A stretch of DNA of 60,352 nucleotides, counting the filler, from Sphacelaria rigidula (taxonomy: Eukaryota): assembly GCA_964200075.2 (NCBI GenBank). It is 9 parts of 9 records of this genome, joined end to end, with 100 filler letters (N's around TTAATTAATTAA, not from the genome) between each part and the next. Parts side by side here need not be neighbours in the genome. Positions count along the whole stretch, not along the records: positions 1 to 6,618 come from CAXNAA020019029.1; 8 more parts are not named here. One strand, written 5' to 3'. Every line of letters starts with the position of its first letter. Within the stretch, counting starts at the first letter, position 1. Under the pieces are notes generated by a model. That model worked only from the letters and a program-made list of their open reading frames with translations. It ran no database searches and had not been told where the DNA came from. Shown here one piece after another: positions 1 through 53,636 of this stretch. A program made the position numbers and the translations under genes.

Positions 1-59
1 ATGCGTGGTCAATGGTCAAACGACTAAGGCAAGCAACAAATGAGTACGCCCCCCCCCCC
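1..59 (+). mobile_element. 5'-truncated LINE 3' end with poly(C) tail
   Basis: ATGCGTGGTCAATGGTCAAACGACTAAGGCAAGCAACAAATGAGTACG-C11 matches the ORF2 C-terminus and 3' end of the LINE fragment at 51240-52545. Confidence 0.85.
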
Positions 60-88
60 GTACGATCCGCGTGTTCGTGCGTGTGCAG

Positions 89-3000
89 GTGGTACTGAAC
101 GATTTTTACGAGTGGCGATTCCAACCGTTGCTGGTCCCGCCGCCGACGCTGCAAGAGGACATGCGGCGACTCGTGAACAACCGCGAGCTCAGCGACGTGA
201 AGTTCATCGTAGATGGCTTCCCTGTCTACGCAAGGTCAGTGCTGGTCGTTTTCCATCCTTGCAACCTTTGTTCTCTACCATCGGTTCGCTCATGATTGGT
301 TTTACGAACTCTTTGATAAGATGTAACAGTGAGCGCGGTTCCCCCCCCCCCCCCCCCGAATGTTCCTTGAACTTTCGTGATGAAACACATGTGTTTTGTG
401 AACCGAGAGTGGCTTCAACTCGAACCCCATCCCAAGACAAGACCGAGAACCATCGGAAAAGAGGGTCCCGGTGATACCAGAGTCGGATTGTGCGATAGTA
501 TATCCCAAATGGGCACCATCGGGCGTCGATTTGAGTGAAAACGGTCGCAGCTCATGCTGGCGAGTCCTTGGGAATGGCTGGGCTTGCTTCGTCGTTTCAT
601 TCTGTTCCCGACTTCCCTTGCGAGACTTGTGCCGCCACCGGGCTCACCACATTATAAGACGGAAGGGAAATGCTTGTTGGGTTTTCCCTCGTGGCGCTCC
701 TTTTTTTTCGTCTCGCCATTTATTCATTCACTTCTGCTCGGGCCTTGGATGATCCAGTGCTGTGCCTCGATTGTCTCCCATCTTTTTGTGTGCTTTTGTT
801 CCCCCCGCCCCTGGTGACGCACCCATGAGGCAGTGTATAGGCCGTGGCTGTCTCTGGAAGCGGCGATACCAGAAAATAAAGCAACTCATTGTAGGCTGTC
901 ATCCAAATGCAAGATGATCAGTAGCTGAACAATCTTGGCAGGATGCAGCTCACTCTTCATGCGACTCGCCGAGCACGTCACGGCGCTTCGCGCTTGGTGG
1001 TTTGAGTGCGAGCCTGATCCGGCGAAAACCCGGCGTGCTCCNNNNNNNNNCTATGGCACACATGATCATAAGCACCCCCCCCCCCTCCACCCCCATCCCC
1101 CCAACACGTTCACATGCGACCGTGATCATCATCAGCCGGATACACCTCGCACTTCGATCGGAGCATTTCCGCGCGATGCTGTTCGGGGGAATGCGGGAGA
1201 GTGAAGCGGGCACGGAGATCGAGATAAAGGTTTGTCCGTACATGCACGTGTATGAGGCCGAACTACGTGGCCTCTCAGGTTCCACGCCATGCACCATTGT
1301 GCACACCTGCCTGCTGTACTTTCTGGCTGAAACGAGAAAGAAAATCATGCATTGCCGATATCAAGCTGACCCCCCTCCTCATGGAGAGCACTACGCGCAA
1401 TTGTCTTTCACCATGGGCCGTAAACATTACTACACTGGCAAACGCCAAACGTGGAATCAAGAATACTCGGGAGGTTGGGTAATAATCGGAATTTTCGCTT
1501 CAAGAACTGCGCAACCCGACTTCGGCGCTCTGTTCTTTCACTTCGCATCTCTCTTCATATATGTTTTAGTTTATGTTTTTTTCAACGTTTTTCTTCCTCG
1601 TCATTTGTGTGTGTGTGCCCCCTCCCACCCCTTCCCCCTATTTTCCCTCCAAATTGTTCTTCCCTCTCCGCTGTTTGCTTGGAACGAGCGTTTCCACTTC
1701 AGCGCGCAGCGTGTTCGTAAGATGACTAATGCCTTCACCGATGGCGGAGCTTCATTTCTGCTCAATGACGAGGCGTACAAATCATTGTCGAAATATTCTC
1801 AACATTTTATGTTTCTTGTTGTATTCCGACACGAGCAGTGAAACATGTTCATTTCCAAATGTTTGCTCACGCTGGCCGGATGTTTGGCATTGTTCCGTAC
1901 TTGTTATTTCTTTGTTCCTTCCTTCAATAGATTCCACTTTATATGCCAATGGTTGCTCCGACTCGAGAGCGATGCGTGATCAATGGCTAAACGGCTGAGG
2001 CAGGCGACGAATGAGTACGCCCCCCACCCCCCCTCCCCTCCAAATGTTCTTGCAGGACGTATCGCACTCGGTATTCCTGAAGCTGCTGGAGTACCTCTAC
2101 ACCGACACCCTGTCGGAAGTCACGCCGGACCAAGCGTTACATCTCCTCGTCGCGTCCGAGCAGTAAGCTATTATTTGCTCTTTTTATTGTGAAGTTTTCT
2201 CCTTTTTTTTTTTTACCGCCGTGGAAGGACAGCTGAGTCGTCTTCATCACCTACAACGTGAATATCCAGTGTTGACCTTTTTTTCTTGTACTTGATTTTT
2301 TTTCATCATGAGGGCCATAACTGGGTCACTTGGCTATTTTCGCTGTGGTTGGAGGAGCCTCATCGTACCCCCCTCACTACAGGAGAAGGCGTAGGTACAA
2401 GCACAGTGAAACTAGCTAGGGTTCAAATCAATGTCTCGTGTGGGGCAGGGGTTGGTGGCGGCACGATAAAGTTTATGATGGAAGATGCCGTATCTATGTG
2501 TGAAAATTTCCTATGTTGTCTCGAATCGCAAGTGATTGTACAGCATGGGTTACGGCTTCCAGCGTGAGCTCTGCAGTCAGTGTTGGTATTGGTGACATTC
2601 CATACAGTTGTACGGAAGAACATCCCCTGCCCGCCCACACACAGAGAGACAATGTTTGATGCGCAGAAGATTTTCGGGGGGTGGGTCATGTCCTGTTCGA
2701 TGGTTTTGCCGACGTGTGGCGCGCCCGAGGCGTATAAGTGCGGAGATGTTACATGCCTTTGGGTCGTGTCTCATGACGACCATGCGTTACGCGGTTTCAT
2801 CGTATAGTACTTCGCTTTTCTTCTCCCGGGGCATACTATTTTTCAGTAATTTCCAATTACTTTTTCTTTTTTTCAGGCAAGGGGGGAGAGGCAAATTGTA
2901 CTTTTCTCTGTTCGTGGCGATAGAAGCTGCGAGATCTGAAATATTTTTCCTTCATCGTATCTCTTCCCGTGTTTTGTTGTAAACTATATAATTGTTTTGT

Positions 3001-3771
3001 CAATAATCCGTTCAGGTACCTGTTGGGGCGGTTAAAGACCCTGTGCGAGGAGGCCATCCGGAAGAGTATCACGTTGGAAACCGTCTGCACCATCTTCCTT
3101 TTGGCGCACAAGCACAACGCCGAAGGCCTCAAGGCGAGCTTTCCTGAATTACAGCTCGCTATTGTTGTCAGATCTTCACGCCGCGTCTGATGGTTTTTCT
3201 CAGAGATGCCACTAACTTTGCGGAGTGCTGTAGCTCCAACGCATCACCGAGCGGCTTCCGTTGCCACCACCCCGTTCGTTCAGTCGAGCGGGATTGTTTT
3301 GCAGTGATGCAGATACGGTTACTTCGCATAGCGTGTCCGTAGTACTCGCCTCCACTCATTTGTTGAAAGAAGCAGAAACCGCTCTGAATTTTGGGTGAAA
3401 CAGCGGTACGGGGCTCTGATCCCCCCTGCTTCAAATTTCCGAGCACTCACTTTGACAGTAACTCACTCACGCTGACCATCGCGTTGTTTGTGACGAATAG
3501 AATGAGTTCTACGCTGTTCACAGTTCGCACAAGTCTTCCTAATGAGCGTAATTCTAAGTATTATGATGGAAGACATGCAACACGTTTTCATGATACACTC
3601 GCCTCTTGGACTCTCTCTTCACCTGAACTTGGTATAAAAATAAAAATGCAGGAAATCGCGTTGGATTTTGTACTGGACAACATGGAGGGGGTGAAGGGCA
3701 CGCCGGGTTTTTTGGAGTTGAAGCAAGAGCCGGATCTTTTGATGGAGATAATCTTCCGCCAGGCGTCGTGA
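89..3771 (+). CDS. Kelch/BTB-BACK (LZTR1-like) protein, 3' five exons; 5' part off-scaffold
   Basis: Exons 89-234, 1136-1229, 2056-2162, 3016-3133, 3652-3771 splice in phase to VVLNDFYEWRFQPLLVPPPTLQEDMRRLVNNRELSDVKFIVDGFPVYASRIHLALRSEHFRAMLFGGMRESEAGTEIEIKDVSHSVFLKLLEYLYTDTLSEVTPDQALHLLVASEQYLLGRLKTLCEEAIRKSITLETVCTIFLLAHKHNAEGLKEIALDFVLDNMEGVKGTPGFLELKQEPDLLMEIIFRQAS*. Classic BTB motifs (SDV-F-V, L-RS-F-AM-GGM-ES, F-LLEYLYT) followed by BACK-like helices. LNDFYEWRF resembles the end of a Kelch repeat (inference). The last intron uses a GC donor. Confidence 0.9.
812..1102 (+). mobile_element. SINE-like non-autonomous retroelement (about 300 bp), full length, poly(C) tail
   Basis: Same 5' start (TGGTGA..CCCATGAGG) and body as the copies at 20153-20382 (-) and 46352-46683 (+). 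Its 3' end (GTGCTCC...CATGATCATRAGYAC-Cn) is homologous to the LINE 3' end. C-runs on both flanks; interrupted by a 10-N gap. Confidence 0.85.
1951..2041 (+). mobile_element. 5'-truncated LINE 3' end with poly(C) tail
   Basis: GGTTGCTCCGACTCGAGAGCGATGCGTGATCAATGGCTAAACGGCTGAGGCAGGCGACGAATGAGTACGCCCC, a diverged copy of the LINE terminus, about 13 nt before the acceptor AG at 2054-2055. Confidence 0.8.
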
Positions 3772-6618
3772 TTTGACGTGACCCAGGAGCCTCTGCTCTC
3801 TTTTTTTTTGTTTTTGTTTTACGTCGCCGAGCAACGCGTATTCTCTTCCAAAAAGTTCAGTAGTGATCATATCTTCCCGGTTCGGAAGTAAGATGCCTGG
3901 ATGGAGGATAACAGTTGATGGTATCTCTTCGTGATGTATTTCTTCCGCTCTAAGCGTGAGTGTGCCTCGAGAGGGCGTCACAGAAGATAGGCAGACACAA
4001 CCATCAATTTTGTATGCTCTTGGGTATGATGGATGGTGTGCTTTTTTCGGCGCGCGGACGTTTCTGCACACGGGCAGAACGAGGTTTGTAAAAAAAAAAT
4101 ATGTCACGTGATTAGCCTTCACATGCTAAACGTATTGTACCATATTTACGCTACGCTCTGGAAAAAACCTGGGATTTCGGTTTTACACGCAGAGTTTTTG
4201 CACTATAGAGTACTCAAACGAGGGGACTCGCGTGGTTGTCAACGGTATGCTTCCTGCAAATCGCGCTTCGAGTACTTGGTCCATGAATGCTCTGCGAAAT
4301 GGCCCTGTTCAAGTGCGTTCGCCTCATGGAATACTGGGGTTTGTGAGCTAGGTCGACAGTGCCTTGGGGTGACAGCACGCATCCAGCACAGCGTCTTGTC
4401 GAGTCTAGCCTTGTACATGTCAAAGGGGCAGCTTGAGTTTTTAGTTGTCATCTTCAATGTATGTGCTGTAGTTTTATTTCAGGATTTGTTTTTGTTCTCG
4501 TGGTGTATATCCGTGGCGGTCAAGTAGCTGGCAGTTCGTACGACTCAGTACGAGCGCGTTCTCTCTCCCGGGAACATCACTGTACTAGCACGATAAATGT
4601 GTGTGAGGAGGTTGTAATTTATGTTTCTCAGTAAGAGTGTGCTGTTTTTTTAATGCTGTTCTTGCCTCCCCTCCCCAATATTTCACGGTCGCACTTTTTG
4701 CTGTTGGTGTATGCATGTCGATTGTTCACGTTCTATCCGTTTCGCGCGTTTTAGCCAGCCCGTTGACGTCACGGTATATATCCCGCACATTTTTTTTTCC
4801 CTCCCGTCGTTTGTTGGCGCTGCTTTTGCCGGGTCGATGTCCATCCCTCGTTGATGGAAGATGGTGTGTCTATGGCATGCCATGTCTAGGGAGTATTGTA
4901 CACAGTATGTACCAAAATAGTAGATGAGTGTTGGACAACACATCGTGATATGCTGTTGCTTCTGGCGTTTCGACGCCGTAGGCCCACGTGCCTTCGATAG
5001 GTGATGGCCTCCAGTGTATAATCTGACGCACTTTTGGCCTTGCCTTAGTTGTCTTCTCACTTCGACCACGAGTGTGGTGAACCTCAAGCCTCGGTGTTCC
5101 TGCTTCTTGTCTTTTACTCTTGCGGGTCTCTCCAAGCGTGATGGCGCATATCCGCGCTTGTGTCCTGAATTCACCCGAAGAAGGTTGAGACTTGGAATTT
5201 TTGGGGAATGGGCGAACCGTCCTTTTTAATATGTGGAGACCAAACCTGGGGCTTGGGGGATTACCGTTTTCAGCGACTGTGGTCGCTGCAACTCAACCAA
5301 GGACAATTGGGACCCTGCGTGGTGGTATGTAAGTTTTTTTGATCTGGACATTGGTGAACGTCCTCGTGTCGAGTGCATTTTGTGTTGATTTGTTTATACT
5401 ACAGGGTTAAATGTACGTGGGTGGATAGGTCAATGGATGGGAGGGGCATGAAGGGGGCTGGTGGATGCATCTGCTTGGAAATGGGGGGCTGGCTGGACGA
5501 GGAAGAATTGTGGTGAGTGAGTGGGAAGTGGATTAGGTCGAGACGGTGGTGTCGAGAGGAATTGATCGGTATTGGTTGGTTGTGAGTTCGATCGAATTTA
5601 AAAATAGCATCACACATTGTCAAAATCTGTACTGCAAAAAGGGCGGTACCAACCGGGTACCGTACTTCTGGGTTCGCCGTGGAGGTTTTTGCTTTACTCT
5701 ATACGCGATCGACTGGTTGTCTATGGAGATACTGAATTGTGACCCCACATAAAGGATCGCTGTGGCATTCTCTGGCCATTTCCCTGAGCCCTCCATGAAA
5801 GTTGGCAACGCGTGATGCCGACGTTTGTACGAGTTTTGCACGCACAGTTGGCCGCTTATTTTTTATGCTCAGTTCGTGTTCACGTCTCCTTCGTGCGTGA
5901 AACAGCAGTAGCAGAGGATTGTACTCTGACTGCGGCCGTTTGCCCTTTCCCGAAATATGTCATTCCACCGCATGTATTATGCACCCATTCAACGCCAAAA
6001 TCGGGCCTCCTCTCCCACGTTGTGTGATTTTATTTGCGAAAAACTGTAGCAGTATGACGAATATTCGGGCAGCTCACGTCTGTGGTTCCAGATTTGATCC
6101 TCTTGGGAAAAGAATAATTGTAAACATCATCACCTACCTCGGTTTGGCCAAAAGAACAACTATATTCATCACCACCTGTTCCCATACCGTGATTTTTCCG
6201 AGAAATATCTCCACCCGCCCAAGTGGTGAATTATACTGGATAACGCGCATACTTTTTTTTTCCCAAGTGAATCTTGATGCCGACTCATTCAGCAAGTAGC
6301 CTACCCTCAACGCGATTTAAGGATTAAAGATCCGGATTTTGCTGTCCACACCAGAGTCGAGTCGGACCCCAAATCAACCATAGCACCCTCCAAAGTGGTA
6401 GACTATACTATACTGGTTATAATGGTCGGTGCGCGCATCTCCTCGACATTTCTGGTCTCGACTGAAACCTCGAGTGAGGAATCACCGGAGTAACTTTTGT
6501 TCTCGACATGTGTCGGACCAGCCGGCACTGTGAACTTTCGTTCAAGTTGTCCACGGATAGGACAAATCATCACGACTCAAAATCACCAAATCCACGATTT
6601 CTTCGGCCTGATTGCCCA

Positions 6619-6718
6619 NNNNNNNNNNNNNNNNNNNNNNNNNNNNNNNNNNNNNNNNNNNNTTAATTAATTAANNNNNNNNNNNNNNNNNNNNNNNNNN
6701 NNNNNNNNNNNNNNNNNN
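6619..6718. other. artificial scaffold linker (N44-TTAATTAATTAA-N44)
   Basis: Six-frame-stop 12-mer inside 88 N; the identical 100-nt unit recurs every about 6717 nt. Confidence 0.98.
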
Positions 6719-8058
6719 TCAGAGGAAAGCACAGTTTTAGGCTTGAGCCTCATCTCGAAGTTAAACCTCAATTCGCACAATTTGTTGTTTAATATCTGTT
6801 TCGGTAGATTCGTAGTAGCTGTCATATTCATGCAGAATAATCGTGAACTTGTTTTCTCTGCATGCACTCGAATTTTGGTATACTGGGATTGATTTGTGTG
6901 AAAGAGAAATATTCCGAAGAGTTTGACGCTGAGTTTCGATATTTTGGGAGTTTATTGGGCAGGGTGACGAACGAATTTTGCATTGAATGGTAGTAACTCG
7001 AGATGAATAGGACTGGCCAACCGCTTAATTTTGAGTACAACAGGTTTGAATGCTTACGGAGTTTGGTGCTATGTCTGGAAAAACTCCATGATAGTGTATA
7101 CGCGGTACATATTGCTGTAAAATGAGCGAATGTGCTGGGAGTTTGTTTTCCTCTGACTATTCTAGGGTATGTGAAGTGAACGAGATTTCGAGGATATGTT
7201 TTTTGCGTTATGACATAATAATTAGATTCAAGCTTGCAGGTGTCCACCGATGTCGACTATCTCAACTATTCTCGGCGGTTGATAGACGGTCGATATCAGG
7301 GGGGCAGATGATGTTGTGATGGTAAATGAGGGCCTGAAATAAAACTAGTTTCCTTGTGGATATGCAGATGGTCCCCAGAAATGACCAGCGGGTATGGAAG
7401 GATTCTAGTCGAATGTGTGTGTAAGGCAGGATTCGATCCCTGTATTATGGCCACAGCGGGTTGAAGTCAAAAGGATTGTACCCGATTAGCCGCGGGTACC
7501 TGCCGCCACTACAGCCTTGATTCCCTAAAAAGTATGGCGCGTCACGGTGATTTTCGTATTATGACGAGATTGTAAGCAGGGCAGACGGATGTATGGGCAG
7601 CTGGCCTACCCCCCTGTCCCACTCGAAAACCTTGACTACAGTCTTCAGGTCTAATTGGATATAAAGAAGAGCTTTGCTCATCAGCTACCTACCGATCTCC
7701 TGTCTTCAGTGTCGCGAGTCCACAGCCTTATTGACGTGAGTCTTAGCTGTGCTGTACTATCACCCTCATTCACTATTGTTACTTGTTTGCTGGCTGTGGG
7801 GCTGTTCCCACTTAGACAGCTGGACCTTCGTCTAGAGAGAGTGAAACAGCAGTTTGGATTAGCAAGTCGGAAACAGGACCGCCTGTCTACACCCCTCAGG
7901 GGCGTGGCTTACTTGCGTTCGGCGTGTACGGCACTACTGCTTGCGGTAATTGCTTATACTTCCACATCGCAGTTGGGGCTTCAGAGGTAGCTTGTGACCT
8001 CAAGCTGGACTGTTTTTCTCCCCGTGGGCTACCGTTGTAAGCGTTCCAGCCCACAACA
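6719..8058 (+). mobile_element. 3' end of an LTR retrotransposon (copia-like): internal 3' region, PPT and a 747-bp LTR
   Basis: LTR candidate 7312-8058 is bounded by the perfect inverted 7-mer TGTTGTG...CACAACA, is preceded by purine-rich AGGGGGGCAGATGA, and holds a TATA-like TATAAAG near 7660. Segment 6745-6789 recurs in reverse complement (1 mismatch in 45) at 60306-60350. No coding domain is visible, so the superfamily is a guess. Confidence 0.55.
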
Positions 8059-18413: not shown

Positions 18414-19959
18414 CCAAGAATCGTTGTTCTGCTGATTCGATCTAAGAAAGCTATGACCATGTGCTCTTGGGACGTAAGTGGGATACTAAGGTGGCTGGTA
18501 AGGGGGTCATTCGAGAATATATGAACCTGGGATTGAACAGCTAATCGTGACTGCAGGTGAAGTCAGATGGCGGATTTAGGGGGGAAAATAGAGAGCCAAT
18601 GCTTTCAGTTTTCAATTACCGTGGTCGTACTATACTGAAAACCTGAAAACCGTACGAGCTGGGCCAGCTGACAGTGATTTGCGAATGTATCGGGGCCGGG
18701 CGGCGGGGAATCCGAAGCGTTGGGCGCTAAAATTATGACACAACATTTTTATCTTCACTACGCACAACCTTCTCGGGGGTGCCGAGAGAAAAACAAACGG
18801 ACAGAAAGTTAGAGCGATTTGAAGTCTCTACAAAAACTAGGAAAATGCTATAACTCCGTGAAACTAAATAAATACGGGGGCATCACTAGTGTAGTTGTGC
18901 GTTTTTGTGTGGAAATCCTGGTGCAATTTCGGTCAAAAATTCCAGATACTTGGCGCAGCATCCAACTTTTTGTGTGGAACGGCTGCGCTGCTGCAATCGA
19001 AGTGATGCAGTTGACTCTAGTTATGGAGGTCACGAGTTCGAATCCCGACGGATTCCTTTTTTTCGTTCCGTCGATTAGGTGATACAAAAATGTAGTATAT
19101 TTTTCAGTTTTTTTTCGTTCAGCGGCGGTGTCGTGCCTTACCACGTTGGTCTGCAGGTCACACCGATATACTCGAGTCCGGCTGATTTAGTGAACTTGAT
19201 AAGTCATTGTGTGACATGCAAACGCGGGATTTACTGCTGGTTCAGCTCCCACCAAAAATCCACGCGGCGAGAGTTTCGCAAGCATAACGGGGTGCTCTCC
19301 TGGCTGCTTGCCATCGAAGTCCTCGTCTGGCACCGGTGTGGTCCCTTCGATTTAGAACCGACGAGAACAATCGCTCCGTTATCAACGTCAAAAAGTGCCC
19401 CTCCCGCTTTTACCAGAAGGCGCCATCTCTCAAGTGAAGCTTAAAAAACAGGGTATACTTGTACCGACGAAGACCATTGCTGATTTGCGGAAAGTTCTGT
19501 CAATCGGTTGTAAATGTGTGTGCCCATCTTCCAAGGAAAGCGACCTCACGAGTCTCCGTCTAAAACTCTGCCTACTCAAACGCCAGCTTGGCTGGATACT
19601 TGACGATCCAGGCATTTACTCACTGCTGTTATGCTGTTGTGTTCACTCCAATTTAGTCTTCATGGCAAAACGATTTGACGCTGAAGGCGTCCGATAAACG
19701 ACGCAAGGCATCACAACACCGCACGCCAGTGCAACTCTCACACGACTCGCGCGCTGCTTGAAAGTCCTCGTCACCTGACAATCGAAAAACAAGCGCTGAC
19801 TGGCTCATGATCTTACTCGGCTGCACCAGTACTTACATTGCGCAAGGGCCCGCACAAAAGCACCCCGTCATGCTACATACATGTTCATTCTGACGCGACT
19901 CTGTTGCCCCTTGTTACCATTTTATACTAGTCGCATTATCTCTCCTATCCCCCCCCCCT

Positions 19960-19997
19960 GGCGTGCATGATCATGAGTACACCCCCCCCCGTCCCCC
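19960..19997 (+). mobile_element. extreme 3' tail of the SINE-like family between two C-runs
   Basis: C10-TGGCGTGCATGATCATGAGTACA-C9. Confidence 0.7.
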
Positions 19998-20152: not shown

Positions 20153-20478
20153 GCACGCCGGCTTTTCGCCGGACCAGGCTCGCACTCAATCACCAAGCGC
20201 CAAGCGCTGTGGTGTGTTCGGCGAATCGCGTGAAGGGTGAGCTGCATCCTGCTAAGATTGTTCGGCCCGAAGCTTATTTTTTTGCATTTGGATGACAGCC
20301 TACAATGAGTTGCTTTGTTGTCTGGTATTGCCACTTCCAGAGACAGCCACGGTTTCCACACTGCCTCATGGGTGTCTCACCAGCGGGGGAGAGTAGTCAT
20401 GATCATACATGCCGTAGTGATGTGGCCATTGACCTCGCATCCCTACAAGGCGGGGACGGAGTACGTCGGGTTTTTGCA
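20153..20478 (-). mobile_element. two stacked SINE-like copies (head-containing copy 20153-20382 directly behind the C-tail of truncated copy 20385-20478)
   Basis: Reverse-complement similarity to 812-1102 and 46352-46683. Confidence 0.85.
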
Positions 20479-20732
20479 AGCCCCAACATCATTGTGCACA
20501 AGTTCACCGAGATATTTCGATCCAATCTGCCTTATTGACAGGAACTCACGCCTTCATGGCATCACTCAACGCCCGGATAGCCCAGCCCGCATTTGGGAAC
20601 TGTCAGCGCGCCGAAGATCCGAACATAATATAATTGCCCCAACTACGCAAGAGGATACATTTTCCCCGTGAACAGAGCTTGGGCGACGGGTTCGCACAAA
20701 GCTCCGTTTTTCACACATAGCCAGACACGTAC

Positions 20733-22540
20733 CGCCTTCATGGTCACGATCACTGTTGCGGTGGCCATGAGCAGTGTCGTGATGATCCCCACCCCCGATC
20801 CGGATGGTCCCGAAACTATGTTTCCGCTCGCGTTTTGGTTCAGGTCCGAGTACCTGTATCGGTGCAAGTGCGTGTGTTTGAAACAACAGAAATGCGCATA
20901 AGGTCAGTAGATTCTCCATCGGCAAAAAAAAAGCAGAGAAAACAATCGTGCGTCAGGCCGCTCCTCATCAACAGACAAAAATAAAGATATGCAAAAGTGC
21001 CTTTTTGAAGCTTCCACGTCATTTTACGCTCCCAAAAGAGAGCTAGGCGGAGTTTGCCACGTTGGAATGACGTGCTCTACTAGTTGAGGCGGTTTCAGGA
21101 CATATTTTACCGTTTCCCGGTGGCCGCAGTTTGAATTTGGCCTAACAAGATTTTTGTCCAAGAACGGTCAGAAACAGTCACGTCCAGAGAAGATGGCCAC
21201 TTTTCTCTGGACTTGACTGTTTTTTACCGTTCTTGAACAAAAAATCTTGTTCGGCCAAAATAAAACTGCGGCCACCGGGAAACGGTAAAAGATGTCCTGA
21301 AACCGCCTCAACTAGTAGAGCAAGTCATTCCAACGTGGCAAACTCCGCCGAGCTCTCTTTTGGTGTCCAGTTGAATTTTTTTTCATCAGAGTCCATCCTC
21401 GAAACCTCGGAGCCAAGCGAATCGAAAAAGGGCTACTCTCCTCAGTGAGGCGACGTAAAGCGTCCGAGACACGCGATGGTGATATTTCATATTTCCTGTT
21501 TGGGGGCCAACAAACTCTATCGAATGTCTCAAAAGTGAAGGAAAAAAAACGTGAGGAACTGTTTGAGGAGAACGGAATATGACACGTGGTCCGTGTGGAT
21601 AAAGACACAAGAGCGTGGGCCCGTCCAAGAGATTGAGGAAAAACGGGAATGACCAGGTAGTGCAAAAGAATAACAAGTGAAAGGTGCGCTTTGGCATACA
21701 CCAAAAAAAAAGTGATCCTATTGGTTGCTCATCAAGGAATTCTCCAGCAAAACCGAAAATTGTTGTGATGTCTGAGCACATATACGTACAGTGCCACAAC
21801 TCGAACGCAACACGTACTTGCAAATATCCTTTTTCGGGACATTCGATTCGTCTTTCGTATCGCCATCACGCACTCAACGATTGCGTGTGGGTACCTCATC
21901 AGGCCTACTAAACCGAGCATATACCCCATGTTCATATCCATGATCTTGAGGAGAGACGTATGCCCCCCAGCTGCGGTGTGCGAGTCGAGGCGGGCGATGC
22001 TCATCTTCACGGGTAGACACCAAATGTGCAGCTCTATCCCAGCGTCATGAAGGGGGGGAGGAGGGGGGGGAAAATGTACCCATGATCCTAAATGCCGTAG
22101 TCACCATTGACCTCATTCCTAAAAATCCGGGACGAAGCACGCTGGGTTTTTGCCGGACCAGGCAGGGTAGGGCCCCACGATACTACAGTTGTGTCGGGTT
22201 GGCGACGCTACAGCCACTTTTGCTCATCCGTATATCTGTCGATACGCCAGTATGGTACCAGAAATGACCGAAGAGTCGTCACTCAGAGATGGTTTTGGGG
22301 GAGGGGTGGTAAACTACGTGATATGGACCGAACTCCACGGCAGGAAAACGCACACGAAGTGTTCTCACCCGAAATCAAGAAGTGCCGTGAATCCGTACAA
22401 CCAGAATAGCAAGTGTGCCATGACGAGGTTGAATACCCAGCCCCCGTTGTTCTTGACGAAGCTCACCGCCCTGGGACCGATCCCGGTTACCCTCATGGCT
22501 TCCCGCTCCGACTGAGTCAGTGTCGCGTCCATGATGCTGC
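20733..22540 (-). CDS. candidate exons of an unknown multi-pass membrane protein
   Basis: Exon-like blocks with good splice sites: 22540-22369 (GSIMDATLTQSEREAMRVTGIGPRAVSFVKNNGGWVFNLVMAHLLFWLYGFTALLDFG), a block ending at 21895 (LLKIMDMNMGYMLGLVGLMR, acceptor uncertain) and 20853-20733 (YSDLNQNASGNIVSGPSGSGVGIITTLLMATATVIVTMKA). The phase between the first two blocks is unresolved; no family recognised. Confidence 0.45.
21032..21363. repeat. near-perfect 332-bp palindrome/foldback
   Basis: Arms CCAAAAGAGAGCT.GGCGGAGTTTGCCACGTTGGAATGAC... and ...GTCATTCCAACGTGGCAAACTCCGCC.AGCTCTCTTTTGG, centred on TGGCCA near 21197 with almost no loop. Confidence 0.95.
22051..22165 (-). mobile_element. 5'-truncated SINE-like copy with poly(C) tail
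   Basis: Reverse complement reads GCCTGGTCCGGCAAAAACCCAGCGTGCTTCGTCCCGG...CATGGGTACATTTT-C-rich. Confidence 0.8.
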
Positions 22541-23389: not shown

Positions 23390-23415
23390 GGGGGGGGTGC
23401 TCATGATCTTGCATA
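23390..23415 (-). mobile_element. SINE-like 3' tail remnant
   Basis: Reverse complement TGCAAGATCATGAGCACCCCCCCC. Confidence 0.6.
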
Positions 23416-28915: not shown

Positions 28916-31826
28916 CGGCAGGATACAGTGCATCCACTCGGTCATGCACAGCTTCGTACCGTTGCCTGATGTACTTGATCGCTGTGGGGTCGACTCTCTT
29001 CAGTTCGAACGGCGGGGCTTGTTCGACAAGGGGAAGGCCACCTCGGAAGAGAACCCGAGGCTCACCCTCGTACACTCCCGCGGCGGTCTTGCCGGTGAAT
29101 GTCGGTGCGTGCATGGTCTCCTTCATGCCCACTGTCACCTGATTATCCCCAGCGGGCCTCAACTCGAACGCACGCGGGTGACTGATGCCTGTGATGGTGA
29201 TAACCCGGCCGCCACCGAGACAGGCGTCCTTGAAATTTCCCAGCCCGCGAAGCGTGGTGGTGTGAACTGGCAACTCCTTGTAGGCATCTCTGAAGGCGTC
29301 AGCTTGCTGTCGCCGCGTGAACAGATCGACCCCCTTGCAGTAGACAGACAGCCTGAATGCGCGGTATGTACGTGGATATGCATCATCCGACGCAAGAAGC
29401 GGGGCCGCCGATGGGTGGGAGGGCCAGTCATTCGCGGACGGTCAAACGCCGCAATAGCGCTGGGATTTCGGCGTCAGTCACGGCATCCATTCGCGAAGTT
29501 CCGGACGGCACCTGTTTTTGTTTCCTTCGGGCGGTGGACCGACGAATACTATGTAAATATTTTGTTTTGGACGCGTGGACCCCCAGAATGTCAGACCGAA
29601 AGGCCTCTCCGGGGGTCTGTTTTTGCTGTATCGCTGGAGGGGGGGGGTAGTCATGGTCATGCATGTCATACTCAAAAGACGATGGACCTCGCATTCCCAT
29701 AAAGCCGGGACGGAGCACGCCGGGTTTTCGCCGGACCAGGCTCGTTGAGGGGGGAGGTGTGGGGGGGAAGGGAGGGGGAATACGGCGAAGCACTGGATCA
29801 CTTCTGTTTTATCTCGTGTGTCCCAAGATACGCTGCTCGGTACACGTTTGTGGTTCTCTATACTAGGTTGCAAATGACATTTCTGAAAATTGAGCTGAAA
29901 ATTGAGATAACGCACAAGAGCAATTTTCATTAATCCTCAAAACTACACGACGAACACAATAAAATGAAGACAAGATGAAAAACAAAAGGATGAAAAAGGC
30001 GACTACTCTGGTCCGAGATCCAGGTGTGTAGCCTACAACGACTTGCTTCGTTTTCCGGTATCGCCACTCTGAGAGACAGCCACGACTGGAACTTTCATCC
30101 CCCTCGTGCGGACTTGAGATCTGCCCGCACCGCACATGATCTACCTCAACTACCGTTATGATTACGTCAACAACAGAATGCAAACTTGCCAAAACAAACG
30201 GTAACGTGGCGGCCGAGCGTACGCAGGGAGTGGCAAGTTCTACGGCATCATGGCCGACTGTCTCAAAGCCCATGAGGGGCACGGGGGAAGAGAGGGAGGC
30301 TGGGGGGGGGGGTCCTAATATGATGTTCACGCTTTCTACCAGGAGACAGGGCATACACTGCTGCTTTTGCGTGATAAACGTCCGCATGGGTTAGGCGGCG
30401 GCGGGTCGTTTGTTTCAAGGGGGCAAACCGCGGGGATTAATGTACCAACCCTGGTGGACGTGGACGTCCCGAGCGTTTGATCCCCGAAAAACCCTCCCGT
30501 GCAAACCTCCCGGATTCATGTCCATCGCGGGGATACAGGAGGCAAGCATACACTCAACAGGCTCGACACCAGCCCAACCGCGTGTTTCTCAAAGAATCGC
30601 GTGACAGTCGACAGCACCGCCAACATCGGCTTCACATGACGTACTTGCCTCGAGAACACCTGATCGATGAGGATGTGCGTGTGCCCCACCATCATAAAGT
30701 TGATCTCCACTCGACCCACTACGCCGCGCCCGACGAGCGAGCCCATGTACCCCAAGAGAATGTGATTCTTGTTCTCTCCAACGCAATTGTCGACTTGGAT
30801 GTACAGTTCGGAGATGTATGGGTCCTTTTCCTCTACGTGGCGCGTCTCGAACAGGCGAGGCAGTGCCCGATGAATGGCCGCACAGGTGAGGTTGCTACCT
30901 GCGTGCGCAAAACAACAAGAGCATTCAAGCATTACGAACGGCGAGGATATACGGGGATTCTCTTACAAGGATGTGATGTCATGGTCGCGGGGTTATGCTT
31001 CAACCATCTTCCTACCTGTAAGTCACGCGTCGTCCTTTCATATGATGACCTTCTTTTTTTGGTACCTTGGGGCGGGTAGTACAGCACGCTGTCACGGCGT
31101 CAGGGAATCGCTCATATACAGGGAACCAACTCATCTCACCTCCGCCCATAGTTTGTGGCGTAAGGAAGATCTCGACGAACTGCCCTTCAATCAGAACGGC
31201 CATCACCTTCCGGCGTTCGGAGAAGCCCCTGCGCAATGAGGTGACGAATAACGCAACGGTGGTCGTCAACCCCAAGGTTGATCACAGTTGGGGGAGGTGG
31301 CATGAGGTAGTTGGGGACACATCAGCACGGGAGGACATTATGTCCACCTGGAGAATCTCCGGCATGAGCCGTCGCGTTTAAGCCAATAGATGGCGCGACA
31401 GTGATCAACTGTGCACCCCATCCCCCGTCTGCCCCCCGACCCCATGCCCAACGCCATTATCATCTTGCATGCACGTCATGTACAGGGTTAGTGTTCACAT
31501 TACATTAATGCCCATCCCGGGCCCTACAAAGAAATGAAAATGCGCGGTGCAGCCCGCGTGAAAGCTATTGATCCGAATGCGGTGGGCTGCGACGAAGCCC
31601 TCGTAATCGCGAGACCCGAAGCAAGGCGATAGCGAGGCCTCTTGAATAGAAATTACTCTCACTTATCCGTTCCGTGCGTCACTGTCGAGCACATGGGTAG
31701 CGCGAACGCCGTTTGATTGGCCGCATCTGCTTGGAGCGACACGCAGTTCAGCGGGGTCAGCTCCGCCTTCGCCCGACGTGCCGCGCCAGCGATGTTGGCG
31801 AGATATTGTCGATCCCGATCGACTCT
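28916..31826 (-). CDS. intron-containing Sola2/DUF7869-type DDD transposase (or domesticated derivative), catalytic core
   Basis: Exons 31826-31663, 31228-31140, 30898-30649, 29352-28916 splice in phase to about 313 stop-free codons: ...CVSLQADAANQTAFALP...KVMAVLIEG...GGSNLTCAAIHRAL...LYIQVDNCVGENKNHILLGYMGSLVGRG...INFMMVGHTHILIDQVFSRLSVYCKGVDLFT.... These match the recalled family motifs IIDGMDQ, SNLT, LYxQxDNxxxENKN and FLxVGHTHEDIDQxFS. N-terminal and last exons not resolved. Confidence 0.85.
29636..29745 (-). mobile_element. 5'-truncated SINE-like copy in a transposase intron (sense orientation)
   Basis: Reverse complement CGAGCCTGGTCCGGCGAAAACCCGGCGTGCTCCGTCCCGGC...CATGACCATGACTA-C9; C-rich sequence on both flanks. 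Confidence 0.85.
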
Positions 31827-33586: not shown

Positions 33587-33594
33587 GGTAATAG

Positions 33595-33745
33595 AGTCCG
33601 AGCCTGGTCCGGCGAAAACCCAGCGTGCTCCGTCCCGGCTTTGTACAGATGGGAGGCCAATAGTCTGATGACTACGGCATGCATGATCATGAGTGCACCC
33701 CCCGCCTCCCCCCCACGCACGCCCTCCTCCTCTCCTCCCTTCCCC
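33595..33745 (+). mobile_element. SINE-like 3' part whose C-rich tail is the polypyrimidine tract of the NDUFA5 last intron
   Basis: CGAGCCTGGTCCGGCGAAAACCCAGCGTGCTCCGTCCCGG...GCATGATCATGAGTGCACCCCCC, running into a C-rich tract that ends about 15 nt before the AG at 33759-33760. Confidence 0.85.
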
Positions 33746-33760
33746 GCAACGACCGTTCAG

Positions 33761-33979
33761 GAGGAAGTAATCGAGAAAACGATAGCGCTGGGACAGCTGG
33801 AGGAGATGATAGAGCAGGGCAAGCTTGAGCTCAAGCTGATCGACAAATATCACGAGGCCAGGATGTGGGAGGTGGTTGACGAGATGAACGAAGGCAGGAC
33901 AGACCTCGAGGAGCTGGACGACTACATGGACCCCATTAACCCCGTTGAATCGGGCGAGAGCGAGAAGGCATCTTCGTGA
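33761..33979 (+). CDS. NDUFA5: NADH:ubiquinone oxidoreductase subunit A5 (B13), last exon
   Basis: After TTCAG: EEVIEKTIALGQLEEMIEQGKLELKLIDKYHEARMWEVVDEMNEGRTDLEELDDYMDPINPVESGESEKASS*; fits the NDUFA5 signature IE-I-GQ-EE-I-Q---EL-L---M---K-WE. Confidence 0.85.
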   Translation, partial: EEVIEKTIALGQLEEMIEQGKLELKLIDKYHEARMWEVVDEMNEGRTDLEELDDYMDPINPVESGESEKASS

Positions 33980-46191: not shown

Positions 46192-46351
46192 AAAGAGCGG
46201 CTTAAAGTTACGTTGGCACAAAATAGTAGTGAAGAAGGTCGGGGATAACACAACTGGTGGAAGAGTTCGAAGTAGAGGTTAGACCACATTGTGCGGAGCA
46301 GAAGAAGCTAAACTGCGCGCAAAGGGGATGATCGCAGCAAGCAGCGCTAAA

Positions 46352-46683
46352 TGGTGAGACCCCCATGAGGCCGTGTAACACGTCGCTGTCTCTAGAAGTG
46401 GCGATAAAAGAGAATCAAGCAAGTCATTGTAAGCTGCCATCCGAATGCAACATAATCACTACGCTTCGCGTCGAAAAACCTCTACGGGATGAAGGTCATC
46501 CCTCATGCGACACGCCGAACACATCACGGTGCTTCGCGCTTGGTTATAGACTGCGAGCCTGGTCGGGCGAAAACTCGGCGCGCTCGGTCCCGGTCTTGTA
46601 AAGATGCGAGGTCAACCTTCTCATAATTACGGCATGCAAGATCATGGGTATACCCGCCACCCCCCCCCCCCGGCCTCCCCCCT
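46352..46683 (+). mobile_element. full-length SINE-like copy (diverged)
   Basis: Collinear with 812-1102 from TGGTGAGACCCCCATGAGG to GATCATGGGTATACCCGCCA-Cn. Confidence 0.85.
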
Positions 46684-46689
46684 ACTTCC

Positions 46690-46775
46690 TCTCCATCTCG
46701 AAGGGGATGCGTGGCAACTGGCCAAATGACTAAGGCAAGCAACAAATGAGCACGCCCCCCCCCCCTCCCCCTCCA
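46690..46775 (+). mobile_element. LINE 3' end directly behind the SINE C-tail
   Basis: CTCCATCTCGAAGGGGATGCGTGGCAACTGGCCAAATGACTAAGGCAAGCAACAAATGAGCACG-C11. Confidence 0.85.
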
Positions 46776-46920
46776 TCATGATCATACGCTCGTAATCATT
46801 TTTTTAGAACAAAACGCTCAATCTCTAACACATCAAAACGGCATTGAACAGTGGATCCTAGAAAATGAGGTTCATACAAAATATGGGGTTGAAGTAGCAT
46901 TTCTCTTTTGCAGGGAAGAC

Positions 46921-49349: not shown

Positions 49350-49905
49350 TCCCTTCATCCGACTCACCGAACACACCACGGCGCTTCGCACTTGGTGATT
49401 GCGAGCCTAGTCCAGCGAAGACCCGGCGTGCCACGTCCCAAATTGTTACGGGTGCGAGATTAAGGGTCCTACGACTACAGTTGCGACCCGCAAATCAGAA
49501 AGAAATACTTCAGAAAATCAGTCTGGGCCTTTCACGGAAAATAAAGAAAATGGACTAAGAAACACAACTCAAACTGGGCGACAAGATAAGAAACATGAAA
49601 ATAAGAAACAGCGCGAATACATACCTAAAATAGGCATAAGAAAAAAGAAACTAGGTGACTGGGGAGCCCCTTCCTAACTAAGAAACATCGAGGATATAAG
49701 AAAACGACAATATAAGAAAATCAACAGGATCCGGTCGGCCAGAAATATAAGAAAACTCAATATACGCAAAAACACAACTTATGCTGGTGTTTGCGCCCGA
49801 AGTAAGACTCTGAGCGTCAACCCCAAATTGACGTTTCTTATCTCCGGGCCGCAACGGTACGGCATGCAAAATCATGGGTACACCCCCCTCCAGTCCTCCC
49901 CCACG
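49350..49905 (+). mobile_element. SINE-like copy split by a Tc1/mariner-type MITE
   Basis: SINE body 49350-49477 resumes at 49858 (TACGGCATGCAAAATCATGGGTACACCCCCC). Confidence 0.8.
49478..49857. mobile_element. 380-bp Tc1/mariner(pogo)-type MITE with TA TSD
   Basis: TA|CAGTTGCGACCCG...CGGGCCGCAACGG|TA; internal TAAGAAA motif repeated many times; duplicates the TA of the SINE consensus GACTACGGC. Confidence 0.85.
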
Positions 49906-50370
49906 CATCCCTCGCAGGGGAAACATACAGCTATTGGACACTCAGAAGTCGAACGCCTTGAGGAGTCCACCAGCCGGTTTCTCAATTGAGGTATATGCTC
50001 CACACGTGTCTTTGAGCAGAACCGTACACCCTCTGTTTCCCTGTCGTGACACTCGTACCCAAAAAATAACTGGCAAGCGATCCCTAAAACGCTACCCCCG
50101 ATTTGTGTACTTCAAGTACGACTTTCAAAATACCCCGCAATTGAGTATACTCTACTCGACCTGCCCTTGCAAGTTTGCTTGTAATTGAGCACTTTAGATA
50201 TCTGACCCCCGGAGGCGTAATTTCAACTTTTCCGGACGAAAAAAAACAACAACGAGAAAACGACACGAGGAGGATCTAGCGTAGCGTAGCGTGGTCTGCG
50301 GTCTGCGGATTAGGAATAAATCGTACAGTGCGCATCGGGTCGAGAATCGAACTATCAACCGCAATCGTCA

Positions 50371-51060: not shown

Positions 51061-51239
51061 TCTATAATCCGAATATGATTGTCCACACTATGCGAGTAGC
51101 CAGGTTTTCTCCAACCATGGAGTTTCGTCGCCGACTTTGCGTAAAATCTCTTCTAGTAGCCTCCGGCGGTGAACAGACAAGTTCGTACACCCCCATCTCC
51201 ATAAGCTAGAGGCTTGGGGCAGGGGGCAGGGGAGTGTGT

Positions 51240-52545
51240 GGGGCGTACTCATTTTTTCCTCGCCTTGGTCATTTGGCCATTGACCACGCATCCCTTAGGA
51301 GACGGAGCACCGTTCCCACTCCAAATAGGTACGTCCAACATTCCAGCGCTCACCATGTTTCTTCCATACAATACACCAAAATAATAGACGTATCTTATCC
51401 CGTTCTTGTTTCGCCGTCCATGGCCACCATTCATCTCCTGGTATAGCGGTCATTTTCTTGCTATTTAATACACCAAACGAGTTCATGCCAACTTCATTTA
51501 CTTCACGCACTTTCCCCTCCAACACGTCCTGTTCCCCTTTGTATATTTCACATTCTCCCATGGCATGAGTTCTGCTCCCTATTGATTCGCCACAAGCGAA
51601 ATTCTGGTCACCTACCTCCTCCTCCACCCGACTACTGGTATACCTATTTCCTCTATCTGGCAGGTCCAGGTACCCCACCCGAAATCGCGCTTTCAACTTT
51701 TTCGCGCAGTCCATTGGGCCGTGCAGGTACGTTTTCACTCCTATCCCTTCTCTCAACCCCCCGGATATCTTCAAGTGCTCTTTCTCGTCCATTTTCCGTC
51801 CTGGCGCTTGCTTTCTCCTTATTGGTATTGTAATGTCTCCTACTTTCCTCTTGCACCCTCACATTCACCTTTGATGGGCATTATGTCATCTTCTTGGTTC
51901 CCCGATATATTATTCCATTATCTCTCTTGACATATCACCTTCTCCCAGCCTGTCCTTTCATTAGTTTATTCCATACAGCTCTATCAACCAACCATGGCTG
52001 GCAATCTCGTCCTTGGCATATACCCCTTGCATTATATTGCGCTGTCAGTTCAAGATTCTCGTGTCCATATTTATTTCAAGTGGGTACATTCCCAATGAAA
52101 TTCTGCTCTCAGTACGTGTTACTCGTCGCTTCTCGGCATCCAACAACGTGTGCATGAGATTGAGAGTAGCGGATACGATTAAGAGTGAAAATCGGTCAAT
52201 TAGTGAATGAATGGTTTCAGTTCCAAAATGCCCTTCCACGAAGCCCGATATGCTTCCTGTCGTAGGTCGCCACTGAGGCCCTTGATATCCATGAGTAGGA
52301 TATCGACGTGTAGCTGTAAGCACACGCCAGGGATGGAGGCAAAGAAAAGCACACACGCAATGGGAAATTGGCCAAGGTAGAACGAATGACCAAAGCCACT
52401 CTCAATCAGCCTTCTACTCTCAATTTCACAAAAACGTCGTTATCCATGTATTTAATTTCTAACCTGCTGATATCTGTGCTGTTCCCAGTTGCTTCGCCAA
52501 CTTTGCGTTCCTTTCCCAAAGTTCTACTGCATATTCCACCTTCGG
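51240..52545 (-). mobile_element. decayed LINE ORF2 C-terminal region and 3' end (RTEX-like)
   Basis: Broken frames EYAVELWERNAKLAKQL (52470-52540), LGMYPLEIN, then KTYLHGPMDCAKKLKARFRVGYLDLPDRGNRY...FACGESIGSRTHAMGEC (decayed CCHC knuckle), ending GNGAPSPKGCVVNGQMTKARKK* followed by GTACG and a C-rich tract. Interrupted near 52150-52450. The clade call is inference. Confidence 0.85.
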
Positions 52546-53431: not shown

Positions 53432-53636
53432 GGGGGGCGAGGGGTACTCATGATCTTTCATGCCGTAGTCATGTGACCATTGACCCCGCATCCCAACAAA
53501 GCAGGGACGGAGCACGCCGGTTTTCTCCGGACCAGGTTCGATAGTTGGGGGGGGAGGCGTACTCATTTGTTGCTTGCCTCAGTCGTTTGATCATTGACCA
53601 CGCATCCCTTTCGAGACGGAGCATAGTTGGGGAGGG
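53431..53636 (-). mobile_element. SINE-like tail (53431-53540) adjacent to a LINE tail (53558-53622) with TSD
   Basis: The LINE tail is flanked by ATAGTT-G8-AGG (53541-53557) and ATAGTT-G4-AGG (53623-53635). Confidence 0.88.

Follow-up and report, generated by a model that had tools for sequence, protein, structure and literature searches.

The stretch of DNA analysed here (the window, 60,352 nt) consists of nine 6617-nt pieces of one eukaryotic genome, unlinked and joined by N44-TTAATTAATTAA-N44 linkers. Piece 1 carries part of a BTB gene on the plus strand, and another piece carries the NDUFA5 exon that runs to the stop codon (33761..33976, +). The two genes need not be neighbours, because the window joins separate pieces.

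Three consecutive BTB introns end with a C-tailed repeat

The BTB gene model rests on reading frame, profile matches and aligned RNA contigs; RNA and DNA contigs were aligned to piece 1. Splicing was read from spliced RNA contigs, one per run, in two runs (X6 and X7) of a single study; neither run is catalogued as RNA, and both yielded spliced contigs. The exon at 89..234 (+) is defined by its reading frame and by a contig piece aligned at 86-232 with a 2-nt ambiguity, and the start of this match at 86 fits an acceptor at 88/89 (AG at 87-88). It is followed by a GT..AG intron at 235..1135 (+; joint 232 to 1134, cut +2, in X6 and X7), an exon at 1136..1229 (+), a second GT..AG intron at 1230..2055 (+; joint 1227 to 2054, cut +2, in X6 and X7) and an exon at 2056..2162 (+). 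The last two exons, both bounded by RNA joints, match successive segments of the Pfam BTB profile (positions 28-56, E 0.14, and 58-88, E 0.0039). Downstream lie two plus-strand introns that hold no element: a GT..AG intron at 2163..3015 (joint 2162 to 3016), in whose last 90 nt C runs do not exceed CCC, and a GC..AG intron at 3134..3651 (joint 3131 to 3650, with a 3-nt ambiguity), whose last 25 nt are A-rich.

An earlier note on this DNA had reported sense repeat copies in three consecutive BTB introns, with C tails about 28, 33 and 13 nt before the acceptor AG. The observation of C-tailed copies before acceptors is confirmed: a sense copy stands at the end of three consecutive introns (three of the five BTB introns overall), and from the tail ends at 59, 1102 and 2041 it is 29, 33 and 14 nt to the final intron base. 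Counted from tail to AG, the spacing is 12-31 nt, the shortest being the 12 nt between the intron 3 tail (2041) and its AG, and the spacer sequences differ between copies. The element-bearing introns are removed exactly in the spliced RNA contigs, with two acceptors confirmed exactly and the third fitting.

Apart from these copies the two complete element-bearing introns are single copy. In DNA run X3 the bin 443-663 of intron 235-1135 has a depth of 11.7, against 11-14 elsewhere, and the bin 1327-1768 of intron 1230-2055 a depth of 13-14; the 5' 575-725 nt of both complete element-bearing introns hold no element. The BTB introns contain 13 C runs of at least 5 nt against 2 G runs. No empty site was seen, because a strain diverged by about 0.9% carries the same two insertions.

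The copies belong to a high-copy, non-coding repeat family

The copies belong to one non-coding repeat family with at least 14 copies in the 60-kb window. Subfamily A is 77 nt long and subfamily B about 330 nt and frequently 5'-truncated. Common to both is a 3' module of about 75 nt that terminates in ...ATGAGTAC(G/A), followed by 10-35 nt that are mostly C. The motif AATGAGTACGCCCCC (at most 2 mismatches) occurs 6 times in the window against 0.07 expected, and for C9 runs there are 78 matches where 0.37 are expected. Self-BLAST of the window returned 80 pairs for the family. An nhmmer profile of the 3' module found 12 places in the window at E<1e-3, of which 7 were its own seeds and 5 were new, and BLAST added a copy at 22051-22163 and the B body at 805-1040. 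With their common 3' end, variable C-rich tails and 5' truncation (starts on the B reference at 1, 1, 1, 117, 148, 165, 203, 203, 277 and 280, three copies having the identical 5' start), the elements look like retroposons.

Copy number is high. In DNA run X3, 43,337 of 4.33 million contig records fall on the 6.6-kb piece 1, and in DNA run X4 73,026 of 5.46 million do, in both cases piled on the repeat bins. The repeat is present in roughly ten thousand copies or more.

On piece 1, an A-type 3' module at 1..59 (+; C11 tail, nhmmer E 2e-17) is cut by the window start and is 95% identical by BLAST to 53605-53547. BTB intron 2 (235-1135) holds a full-length B at 812..1102 (+), which aligns to B reference 1-234 and sits behind a T/C-rich tract terminating in CCCCCCGCCCC; its C-rich tail spans 1075-1102, and an assembly gap at 1042-1050 interrupts the element, the loose contig ends past 1041 carrying on as B module. 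The A element of intron 3, at 1954..2041 (+; C-rich tail 2016-2041, nhmmer E 6.9e-19 as a profile seed, A reference 1-68), is the most diverged A copy (76-83% identity by BLAST).

Further copies lie on the other pieces. A 28-nt 5'-truncated B end at 19956..19997 (+; nhmmer E 2.3e-4, B reference 280-307) lies directly behind a C10 run. At 20153..20519 (-) a partial tandem comprises a truncated B that runs from reference 165 into its tail (20519-20382) and, immediately after it, the head of a full-length B (20382-20153), which the piece edge cuts off. Further 5'-truncated copies are found at 22051..22247 (-; C-rich tail 22051-22075, BLAST to 33714-33602 with E 1.9e-16), near a putative acceptor, and at 29636..29744 (-; truncated at reference 203, nhmmer E 2.9e-10), behind a C-rich stretch. 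The plus-strand arrangement at 46352..46765 joins a full-length B (46352-46671) to an A element (46690-46765) inserted 18 nt past the B tail. A truncated B body lies at 49350..49497 (+), and apart from it a tailed B end of 31 nt at 49847..49902 (+), the tail being 15 nt before a putative acceptor; a homology search of the longer proteins found nothing for the ORF at 49832-50185. An A element with a mixed C-rich tail lies at 51217..51309 (-; nhmmer E 3.9e-21, profile seed). Finally, at 53432..53623 (-) an A element (53623-53547) is separated by 6 nt from the next copy, a B whose truncation lies at reference 203 (53540-53432) and whose tail continues into (CA)19; these are two insertions at one site, each flanked by AACTA / CAACTAT.

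RNAalifold predicted no pairs for the repeat, and single folds gave z-scores of -1.5 to +0.6, that is, no significant RNA structure. A small hairpin at the start of the module is common to the single folds. A 24-base B pattern had 0 matches in the genomic-contig and viral-contig collections. A 15-base module pattern matched 119 metagenome loci; we regard these as chance matches because, when they were searched with a profile, one marginal match and no real copy came up.

NDUFA5 and other acceptors

The NDUFA5 exon matches NDUFA5 chains of solved complex I structures in the PDB (best 8iuf_A5, E 3.3e-5). As the earlier note had described, the last NDUFA5 intron shows the same arrangement as the BTB introns: a sense B copy at 33587..33715 (+; nhmmer E 4.1e-19, profile seed), cut by the piece edge, stops 45 nt before the exon, and a CT-rich tract leads on to the AG (33759-33760). 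The note had also listed two minus-strand cases as weaker, each at what is a putative acceptor: the copy at 22051 is a true 5'-truncated B, and the one at 23390 is only a fragment of about 40 nt with an nhmmer E of 0.09.

A sense tail lies within 50 nt of four out of six verified acceptors, four of the six having been chosen for showing the pattern. With these six acceptors, four of them pre-chosen, 565 of 10^6 random placements gave at least two such tails and none gave at least three, and the analytic probability is 2e-8. Sense orientation relative to a gene is established for the copies at these four acceptors, alongside which the window holds about 10 others.

At three element-free acceptors, those at 3015, at 3651 and of the SCP2 exon, C runs in the last 60-90 nt do not exceed CCC (n=3), so native C-rich tracts are not shown to be the rule. 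A C8 run at 15736, before a putative EF-hand exon, was also considered as a candidate and set aside: it is not a recognisable element copy, and 44 and 18 of 500 shuffles scored equally.

C runs precede part of the copies

The earlier note read the arrangement as elements that target C-rich pyrimidine tracts and renew them with their own tails, and this reading is partly supported. In its favour, 6 of the 15 element 5' junctions come directly after a C run, compared with a 2.9% share of all window positions (binomial 2e-6), and tail-to-head tandems recur. Those of the window are at 20519-20153, 46352-46765 and 53623-53432. Genome-wide, contig joints lead from tail positions 52-59 to B head positions 808-822 (1-16 contigs for each joint in a run). 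Elsewhere in the genome a tail frequently has a B 5' head 0-18 nt behind it (joints 55-59 to 812-820). Against it, 9 of the 15 junctions, the intron 3 A copy included, have no C run of at least 5 nt within 25 nt.

Of 12 copies, 2 show clear target-site duplications and another 2 have duplications made up entirely of C runs; in the remaining 8 they are absent or loose. Exact flank matches of at least 7 nt occur in 4 of the 12 copies, compared with 15% of pairs when flanks are swapped; in two of these four the match is nothing but a C run. The intron 3 A copy is flanked at most by a loose CCAATGGT / CCAAATGTT duplication.

Class of the element

The earlier note had called the elements a LINE/SINE pair, which is not supported: no LINE or other autonomous partner was found in the window. 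None of the 447/467 ORFs of at least 60 aa scanned in the window has a reverse-transcriptase, endonuclease or GIY-YIG domain, and the Pfam matches among them were BTB, EF-hand, SCP2, DUF7869 and a few weak, doubtful ones. The elements are short and non-coding, as SINEs are, and ORFs overlying them contain no Pfam domain. Known SINE heads were not detected. ARAGORN found 0 tRNA genes in the window, and Rfam gave no match at gathering scores, hammerhead included, hence no 5S- or 7SL-like head; in a relaxed Rfam scan of 46250-46850 the sole match was to 5.8S (E 0.49). Of the Penelope-like traits, the partial tandem (pseudo-LTR) arrangement and the bias towards a simple-repeat target, the C run, are present, and a hammerhead ribozyme and a reverse transcriptase with GIY-YIG are absent from the window, outside which a partner may lie. 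Nor does an element make up a whole intron with both splice sites, as an introner would.

Discussion

The copies, tails, truncations and tandems that we observe, their position and orientation at four acceptors and the accurate splicing could be accounted for by a single process, to which we give an even chance: high-copy C-tailed retroposons reach acceptors through insertion of the tail at C runs and renew the pyrimidine tract there. Some reverse transcriptase would copy the elements at a nick, where the C tail (a CA-repeat tail in one copy) would pair with the nicked DNA end, so that new copies would land in or just behind C runs, older tails included. Orientation would be set by whichever strand bears the C run. 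Intron sense strands here are pyrimidine-rich and pyrimidines cluster about 15-60 nt before the acceptor, and therefore genic copies would come to lie in sense just before acceptors. There the tail would lengthen or substitute the pyrimidine tract, with the intron still excised exactly. Target-primed reverse transcription and tail-to-target pairing are what we infer from these features. At the acceptors that were hit, a C run would already have been present before insertion, and insertion so close to an acceptor would be nearly neutral.

A stronger version seems doubtful, namely that something more than C-run matching guides the family to the zone of branch point and pyrimidine tract, as a mobile and cost-free 3' splice-site module that settles 12-45 nt from acceptors in an intragenic safe harbour and brings a pyrimidine tract and perhaps a branch point. 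It is suggested by the one acceptor-proximal copy whose target has no C run. The same intron 3 copy also fits random insertion followed by selective retention, in which copies land anywhere and those persist, and stay recognisable, whose tails strengthen or replace a weak pyrimidine tract or branch region; this would be exaptation and not targeting. With 12 nt between its tail and the AG, usual branch-point distances would put both the branch point and the pyrimidine tract inside the element or at its edge. The element-free BTB acceptors have a poor, A/T-rich last 25 nt. Yet selective retention leaves unexplained the excess of C runs at 5' junctions and the genome-wide tail-to-head tandems, and the intron 3 copy is the most diverged A and not the best preserved. 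On balance we consider it unlikely. Chance clustering in a small sample, chosen post hoc from a repeat-filled genome, has to be weighed given six verified acceptors, a gene picked for the pattern and about 15 copies in 60 kb. It appears very unlikely, however, since the probability of at least four acceptors is 5e-4 even assuming 60 of them, and if two copies were dropped at random into the complete BTB introns, of which there are four, the probability that both fall in sense within 35 nt of an acceptor is 5e-4.

Two further explanations concern the nature of the elements. They could be non-autonomous derivatives of a Penelope-like or other element that combines an endonuclease with a reverse transcriptase and has a simple-repeat target bias, a possibility that we hold tentatively and think somewhat improbable. 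The C-run bias, the tandems and the truncation are all observed here, but there is no hammerhead or Rfam match, and no reverse transcriptase or GIY-YIG in the window. Some Penelope clades also have no ribozymes, and the ribozyme's absence is therefore weak evidence either way. Since such non-LINE machinery concerns who moves the elements, it can be combined with either explanation of their location. That element insertion created these introns or acceptors is extremely unlikely. Non-LTR-derived introners exist, as passages of PMC12130899 report, and an element stands at the end of three of five BTB introns; however, in the two complete introns, 826 and 901 nt long, the elements account for only 88 and 291 nt, what is left of each is single copy, and the 12-31 nt sequences from tail to AG differ between copies.

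In the best-studied genomes, passages of PMC3088655 and PMC3219598 indicate, transposable elements are depleted next to exons and insertions into acceptor tracts break splicing. Here a high-copy repeat occupies that very zone in the sense orientation without loss of precise intron removal. Should the bias hold genome-wide, the chemistry of the tail (C, a pyrimidine) would make the most dangerous part of an intron the safest landing place, the family would offer a natural system for studying how flexible the recognition of branch points and pyrimidine tracts is, and the C-run target would join the list of simple-repeat-directed retroelements. The literature searched contained no description of C-tailed retroposons at acceptors.

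Comparison with known systems

Retroelements that target simple repeats include Penelope-like Naiad and Chlamys and the microsatellite-specific LINEs. Like L1 and Alu, which move by target-primed reverse transcription with pairing of tail and target, the elements described here have a homopolymer 3' tail, 5' truncation and, in some copies, short and variable flank duplications and a position in or behind a run that matches the tail; unlike L1 and Alu, their tail is C and not A, and no partner LINE lies in the window. In NF1, Alu elements hit acceptor pyrimidine tracts, and passages of PMC3219598 place 3 of 4 splice-site Alu insertions in the polypyrimidine tract, which explains exon skipping. 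In mammals, transposable elements are depleted within about 100 bp of exons according to passages of PMC3088655. In contrast to the NF1 Alu insertions, the copies here lie 14-45 nt from acceptors and are spliced out cleanly.

The Penelope-like elements Naiad and Chlamys, which passages of PMC8557442 credit with up to tens of thousands of copies, share with our family a bias towards simple-sequence targets, partial tandems and heavy truncation. Our elements differ in their mononucleotide C-run target and in being non-coding and 77-330 nt long, with ribozyme and reverse transcriptase not found here; a splice-acceptor link is not described for Naiad or Chlamys in the passages of PMC8557442 drawn on here. 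Introners resemble the family in that a high-copy mobile sequence inside introns is removed exactly by splicing (passages of PMC12130899). Unlike introners, the elements here make up only the last 10-32% of an intron whose remainder is single copy, and carry neither splice site.

Antisense Alu elements supply a poly-U tract and a cryptic acceptor and so create new exons. They are mentioned as sources of poly-U tracts and cryptic acceptors in passages of PMC3088655. In both systems the tail of a short retroposon would serve as a polypyrimidine tract; unlike antisense Alu, no exonisation is seen in the contigs of our family, whose tail is pyrimidine in the sense orientation and would serve an acceptor that already exists.

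Sense C-tailed copies lie just upstream of four splice acceptors

The 60,352-base window is made of nine 6,617-nt pieces separated by N44-TTAATTAATTAA-N44 linkers at 6619, 13336, 20053, 26770, 33487, 40204, 46921 and 53637 (6619-6718, then every 6717 nt). Because it is a concatenation, distances between pieces are meaningless and features of different pieces are not neighbours; no linkage is implied between the BTB gene in piece 1 and the NDUFA5 exon in piece 6. The source DNA is that of a eukaryote; spliced contigs show introns of the GT..AG and GC..AG types.

These contigs come from two runs, X6 and X7, that were taken as RNA by guess and, belonging to the same study, count as one independent source. 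One contig in each joins 86-232, 1134-1227, 2054-2162, 3016-3131 and 3650-3789, which places the BTB introns, within the ambiguities of the joints, at 235-1135, 1230-2055, 2163-3015 (GT..AG) and 3134-3651 (GC..AG). The match to the window starts at 86, compatible with an acceptor at 88/89. The reading frame passes through the BTB domain, exons 2 and 3 matching Pfam BTB positions 28-56 and 58-88 (individually weak, consecutive). The exon at 33761-33976 matches NDUFA5 chains in solved structures of complex I (best E 3.3e-5). Elsewhere in the BTB gene, the GC..AG intron, spliced in contigs of two runs, is A-rich over its last 25 nt and has a pyrimidine-rich stretch 28-50 nt upstream of its AG. 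An unspliced, high-depth 2.2-kb RNA contig lies 3' of the stop codon (3830-6005 in X6, 3830-5340 in X7); no Pfam domain was found in 3830-6005, which may represent either an extended 3' UTR or an independent transcript.

The earlier note reported a sense C-tailed copy just before the acceptors of three BTB introns and of NDUFA5, and this observation is confirmed. The tails end at 59, 1102, 2041 and 33715, respectively 29, 33, 14 and 45 nt upstream of the last intron base, all four in sense. The BTB acceptors at 3015 and 3651 have no copy of this repeat, the A/B family, within 900 nt. When 15 tails were placed randomly on either strand relative to six acceptors (10^6 trials), at least two matching acceptors occurred in 565 trials and at least three in 0, against four observed; the analytic P for four acceptors with a sense tail is 2e-8. 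Since these acceptors had been picked by the earlier note, the calculation was repeated for an assumed total of 60 acceptors in the window (P = 5e-4). For two copies positioned at random within the four complete BTB introns, the chance that both are in sense and at most 35 nt from an acceptor is 5e-4. The association of tails with acceptors is thus real within this sample.

A short and very abundant repeat family

The end motif of these elements occurs six times in the window (0.07 expected), C9 runs give 78 matches (0.37 expected) and self-BLAST returns 80 repeat pairs. A profile of the 3' module, built from seven copies, finds 12 places at E<1e-3, five of them outside the seed (1-59, 20457-20386, 29711-29639, 49858-49890 and 19960-19989). 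BLAST added a copy at 22051-22163 and the body of the intron 2 copy (805-1040), where a 9-N assembly gap hides part of the module; loose contig ends behind 1041 carry on as the 3' module. The window has about 15 copies in 60 kb, with eight tails on the plus and seven on the minus strand.

Subfamilies A and B have their last ~75 nt in common. Subfamily A measures 77 nt, with an identical start base in four copies, and subfamily B about 330 nt, with one 5' start common to three; copies begin at 1, 1, 1, 117, 148, 165, 203, 203, 277 and 280 of the B reference, and one more is truncated by a piece edge. All terminate in 10-35 nt that are mostly C, and one C tail continues into (CA)19. At a likeness of at least 90%, piece 1 matches 43,337 of 4.33 million contig records in the DNA run X3 and 73,026 of 5.46 million in X4, from a strain about 0.9% different. 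Repeat bins 1-221 and 664-1105 reach a summed depth four to five orders of magnitude above unique bins (11-14, X3), showing that the family is very abundant, summed depth on piece 1 not being equal to copy number. A junction of 871 with 1007, skipping 872-1006, occurs in contigs of X4, X6 and X7 and points to a B subfamily elsewhere in the genome that lacks these 135 internal nt.

Both subfamilies are short and non-autonomous. No reverse transcriptase or endonuclease Pfam domain was found in the 447 ORFs scanned, out of 467 window ORFs of at least 60 aa, and the A/B elements have no tRNA-like head, no Rfam match (hammerheads included) and no consensus RNA structure. Folds of single copies are not better than shuffles, except for a small hairpin that they have in common where the module begins. 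The existence of a LINE partner in the proposed LINE/SINE pair is therefore not shown.

Other repeats are present. At the end of piece 1, 6410-6618 is another very high-copy repeat (summed depth about 1.8e5, against 11 for unique DNA, X3). Pieces 2 and 9 share a 45-nt inverted match (6745-6789 and 60350-60306, 98%). A different family (14781-15024 and 50620-50371, also 54873 and 55037; 83% identity over about 250 nt) has a C7-C9 run in its interior and an A run after that, so the genome's C runs are not A/B tails alone. The two copies of an 87-nt direct repeat (54309-54395 and 54483-54569, 93% identity) flank a 10-N assembly gap and terminate in long C runs of 27 and 16; the repeat may have arisen by duplication at a homopolymer during assembly. 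A degenerate tandem array of about 1.5 kb with a 42/84-nt unit spans 43768-45316, and a minus-strand ORF at 30519-30962, strongly matching DUF7869 (E 1.1e-23), may belong to another mobile element.

Proposed insertion into C-rich tracts

The interpretation in the earlier note, that the elements target the pyrimidine tracts of acceptors, is partly supported. A run of at least five C lies within 25 nt upstream of 6/15 element 5' junctions, against 2.9% of window positions (binomial 2e-6), and four of these six runs are tails of older copies. Three head-to-tail tandems occur in the window (20519-20153, 46352-46765 and 53623-53432); at 53432-53623 one site was used by two insertions, each flanked by AACTA / CAACTAT. 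In DNA and RNA runs, contigs join a tail (52-59) to a B head (808-822) across 0-18 C-rich letters (1-16 contigs per joint), compared with 469 loose ends behind 59 in X3 and 876 in X4 that continue into unlike sequence. Copies have thus often landed behind a C tail across the genome. In intron 2, a T/C-rich stretch ending CCCCCCGCCCC precedes the full-length B copy, and it looks like this pyrimidine tract was its insertion target; the tail in the NDUFA5 intron is still followed by a CT-rich tract. The BTB introns contain 13 runs of at least five C and two of G, so that an element seeking C runs would land in sense.

On the other side, nine of the 15 junctions have no C run, including that of the intron 3 A copy, whose flanks suggest no more than a loose CCAATGGT / CCAAATGTT duplication. 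Exact flank matches of at least 7 nt occur in 4/12 copies, compared with 15% when flank pairs were swapped; in two of these four the match consists of a C run alone. At the three placeable element-free acceptors (3015, 3651 and that of the minus-strand SCP2 exon in piece 7), C runs do not exceed CCC over the last 60-90 nt, so native C runs are not established as usual at acceptors; these introns may have had no target to offer. A C8 run at 15736-15743, 44 nt upstream of the inferred acceptor of a putative EF-hand exon and not a recognisable A/B copy, may be a native target. No empty site was seen in X4, whose contigs span both junctions of the intron 2 and intron 3 copies.

A-tailed LINEs and SINEs are known to insert by target-primed reverse transcription in which the tail pairs with target DNA. 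The C-run junctions, tandems, flank duplications, tracts beside the intron 2 and NDUFA5 copies and strand bias fit such a mechanism, in which the C tail would pair with its target. A Penelope-like mover, which we hold to be doubtful, is compatible with the partial tandems, and LINE-type insertion proceeds without such tandems according to the authors in excerpts of PMC8557442. No supporting ribozyme or enzyme was found in Rfam and Pfam scans of the window. Selective retention or exaptation could also underlie the association with acceptors: with only 12 nt between tail and AG in intron 3, the branch point or tract has to sit within the element or at its edge. We consider this explanation rather unlikely. 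Introner-type intron gain was rejected, as the element makes up 88/826 nt and 291/901 nt of two introns whose remainder is single copy.

Comparison with known systems

Excerpts of earlier studies describe TEs as rarer within about 100 bp of exons in mammals (PMC3088655), exon skipping in NF1 from Alu insertions in acceptor pyrimidine tracts (PMC3219598) and introners of retroposon origin (PMC12130899). Penelope-like elements are known to target simple repeats and to form tandem copies, as excerpted from PMC8557442. A literature search, with Repbase and Dfam outside its scope, found no description of a C-tailed retroposon linked to acceptors. We interpret the A/B family as retroposons that seek simple repeats matching their own tail, and that can live in the acceptor zone because this tail is a pyrimidine.
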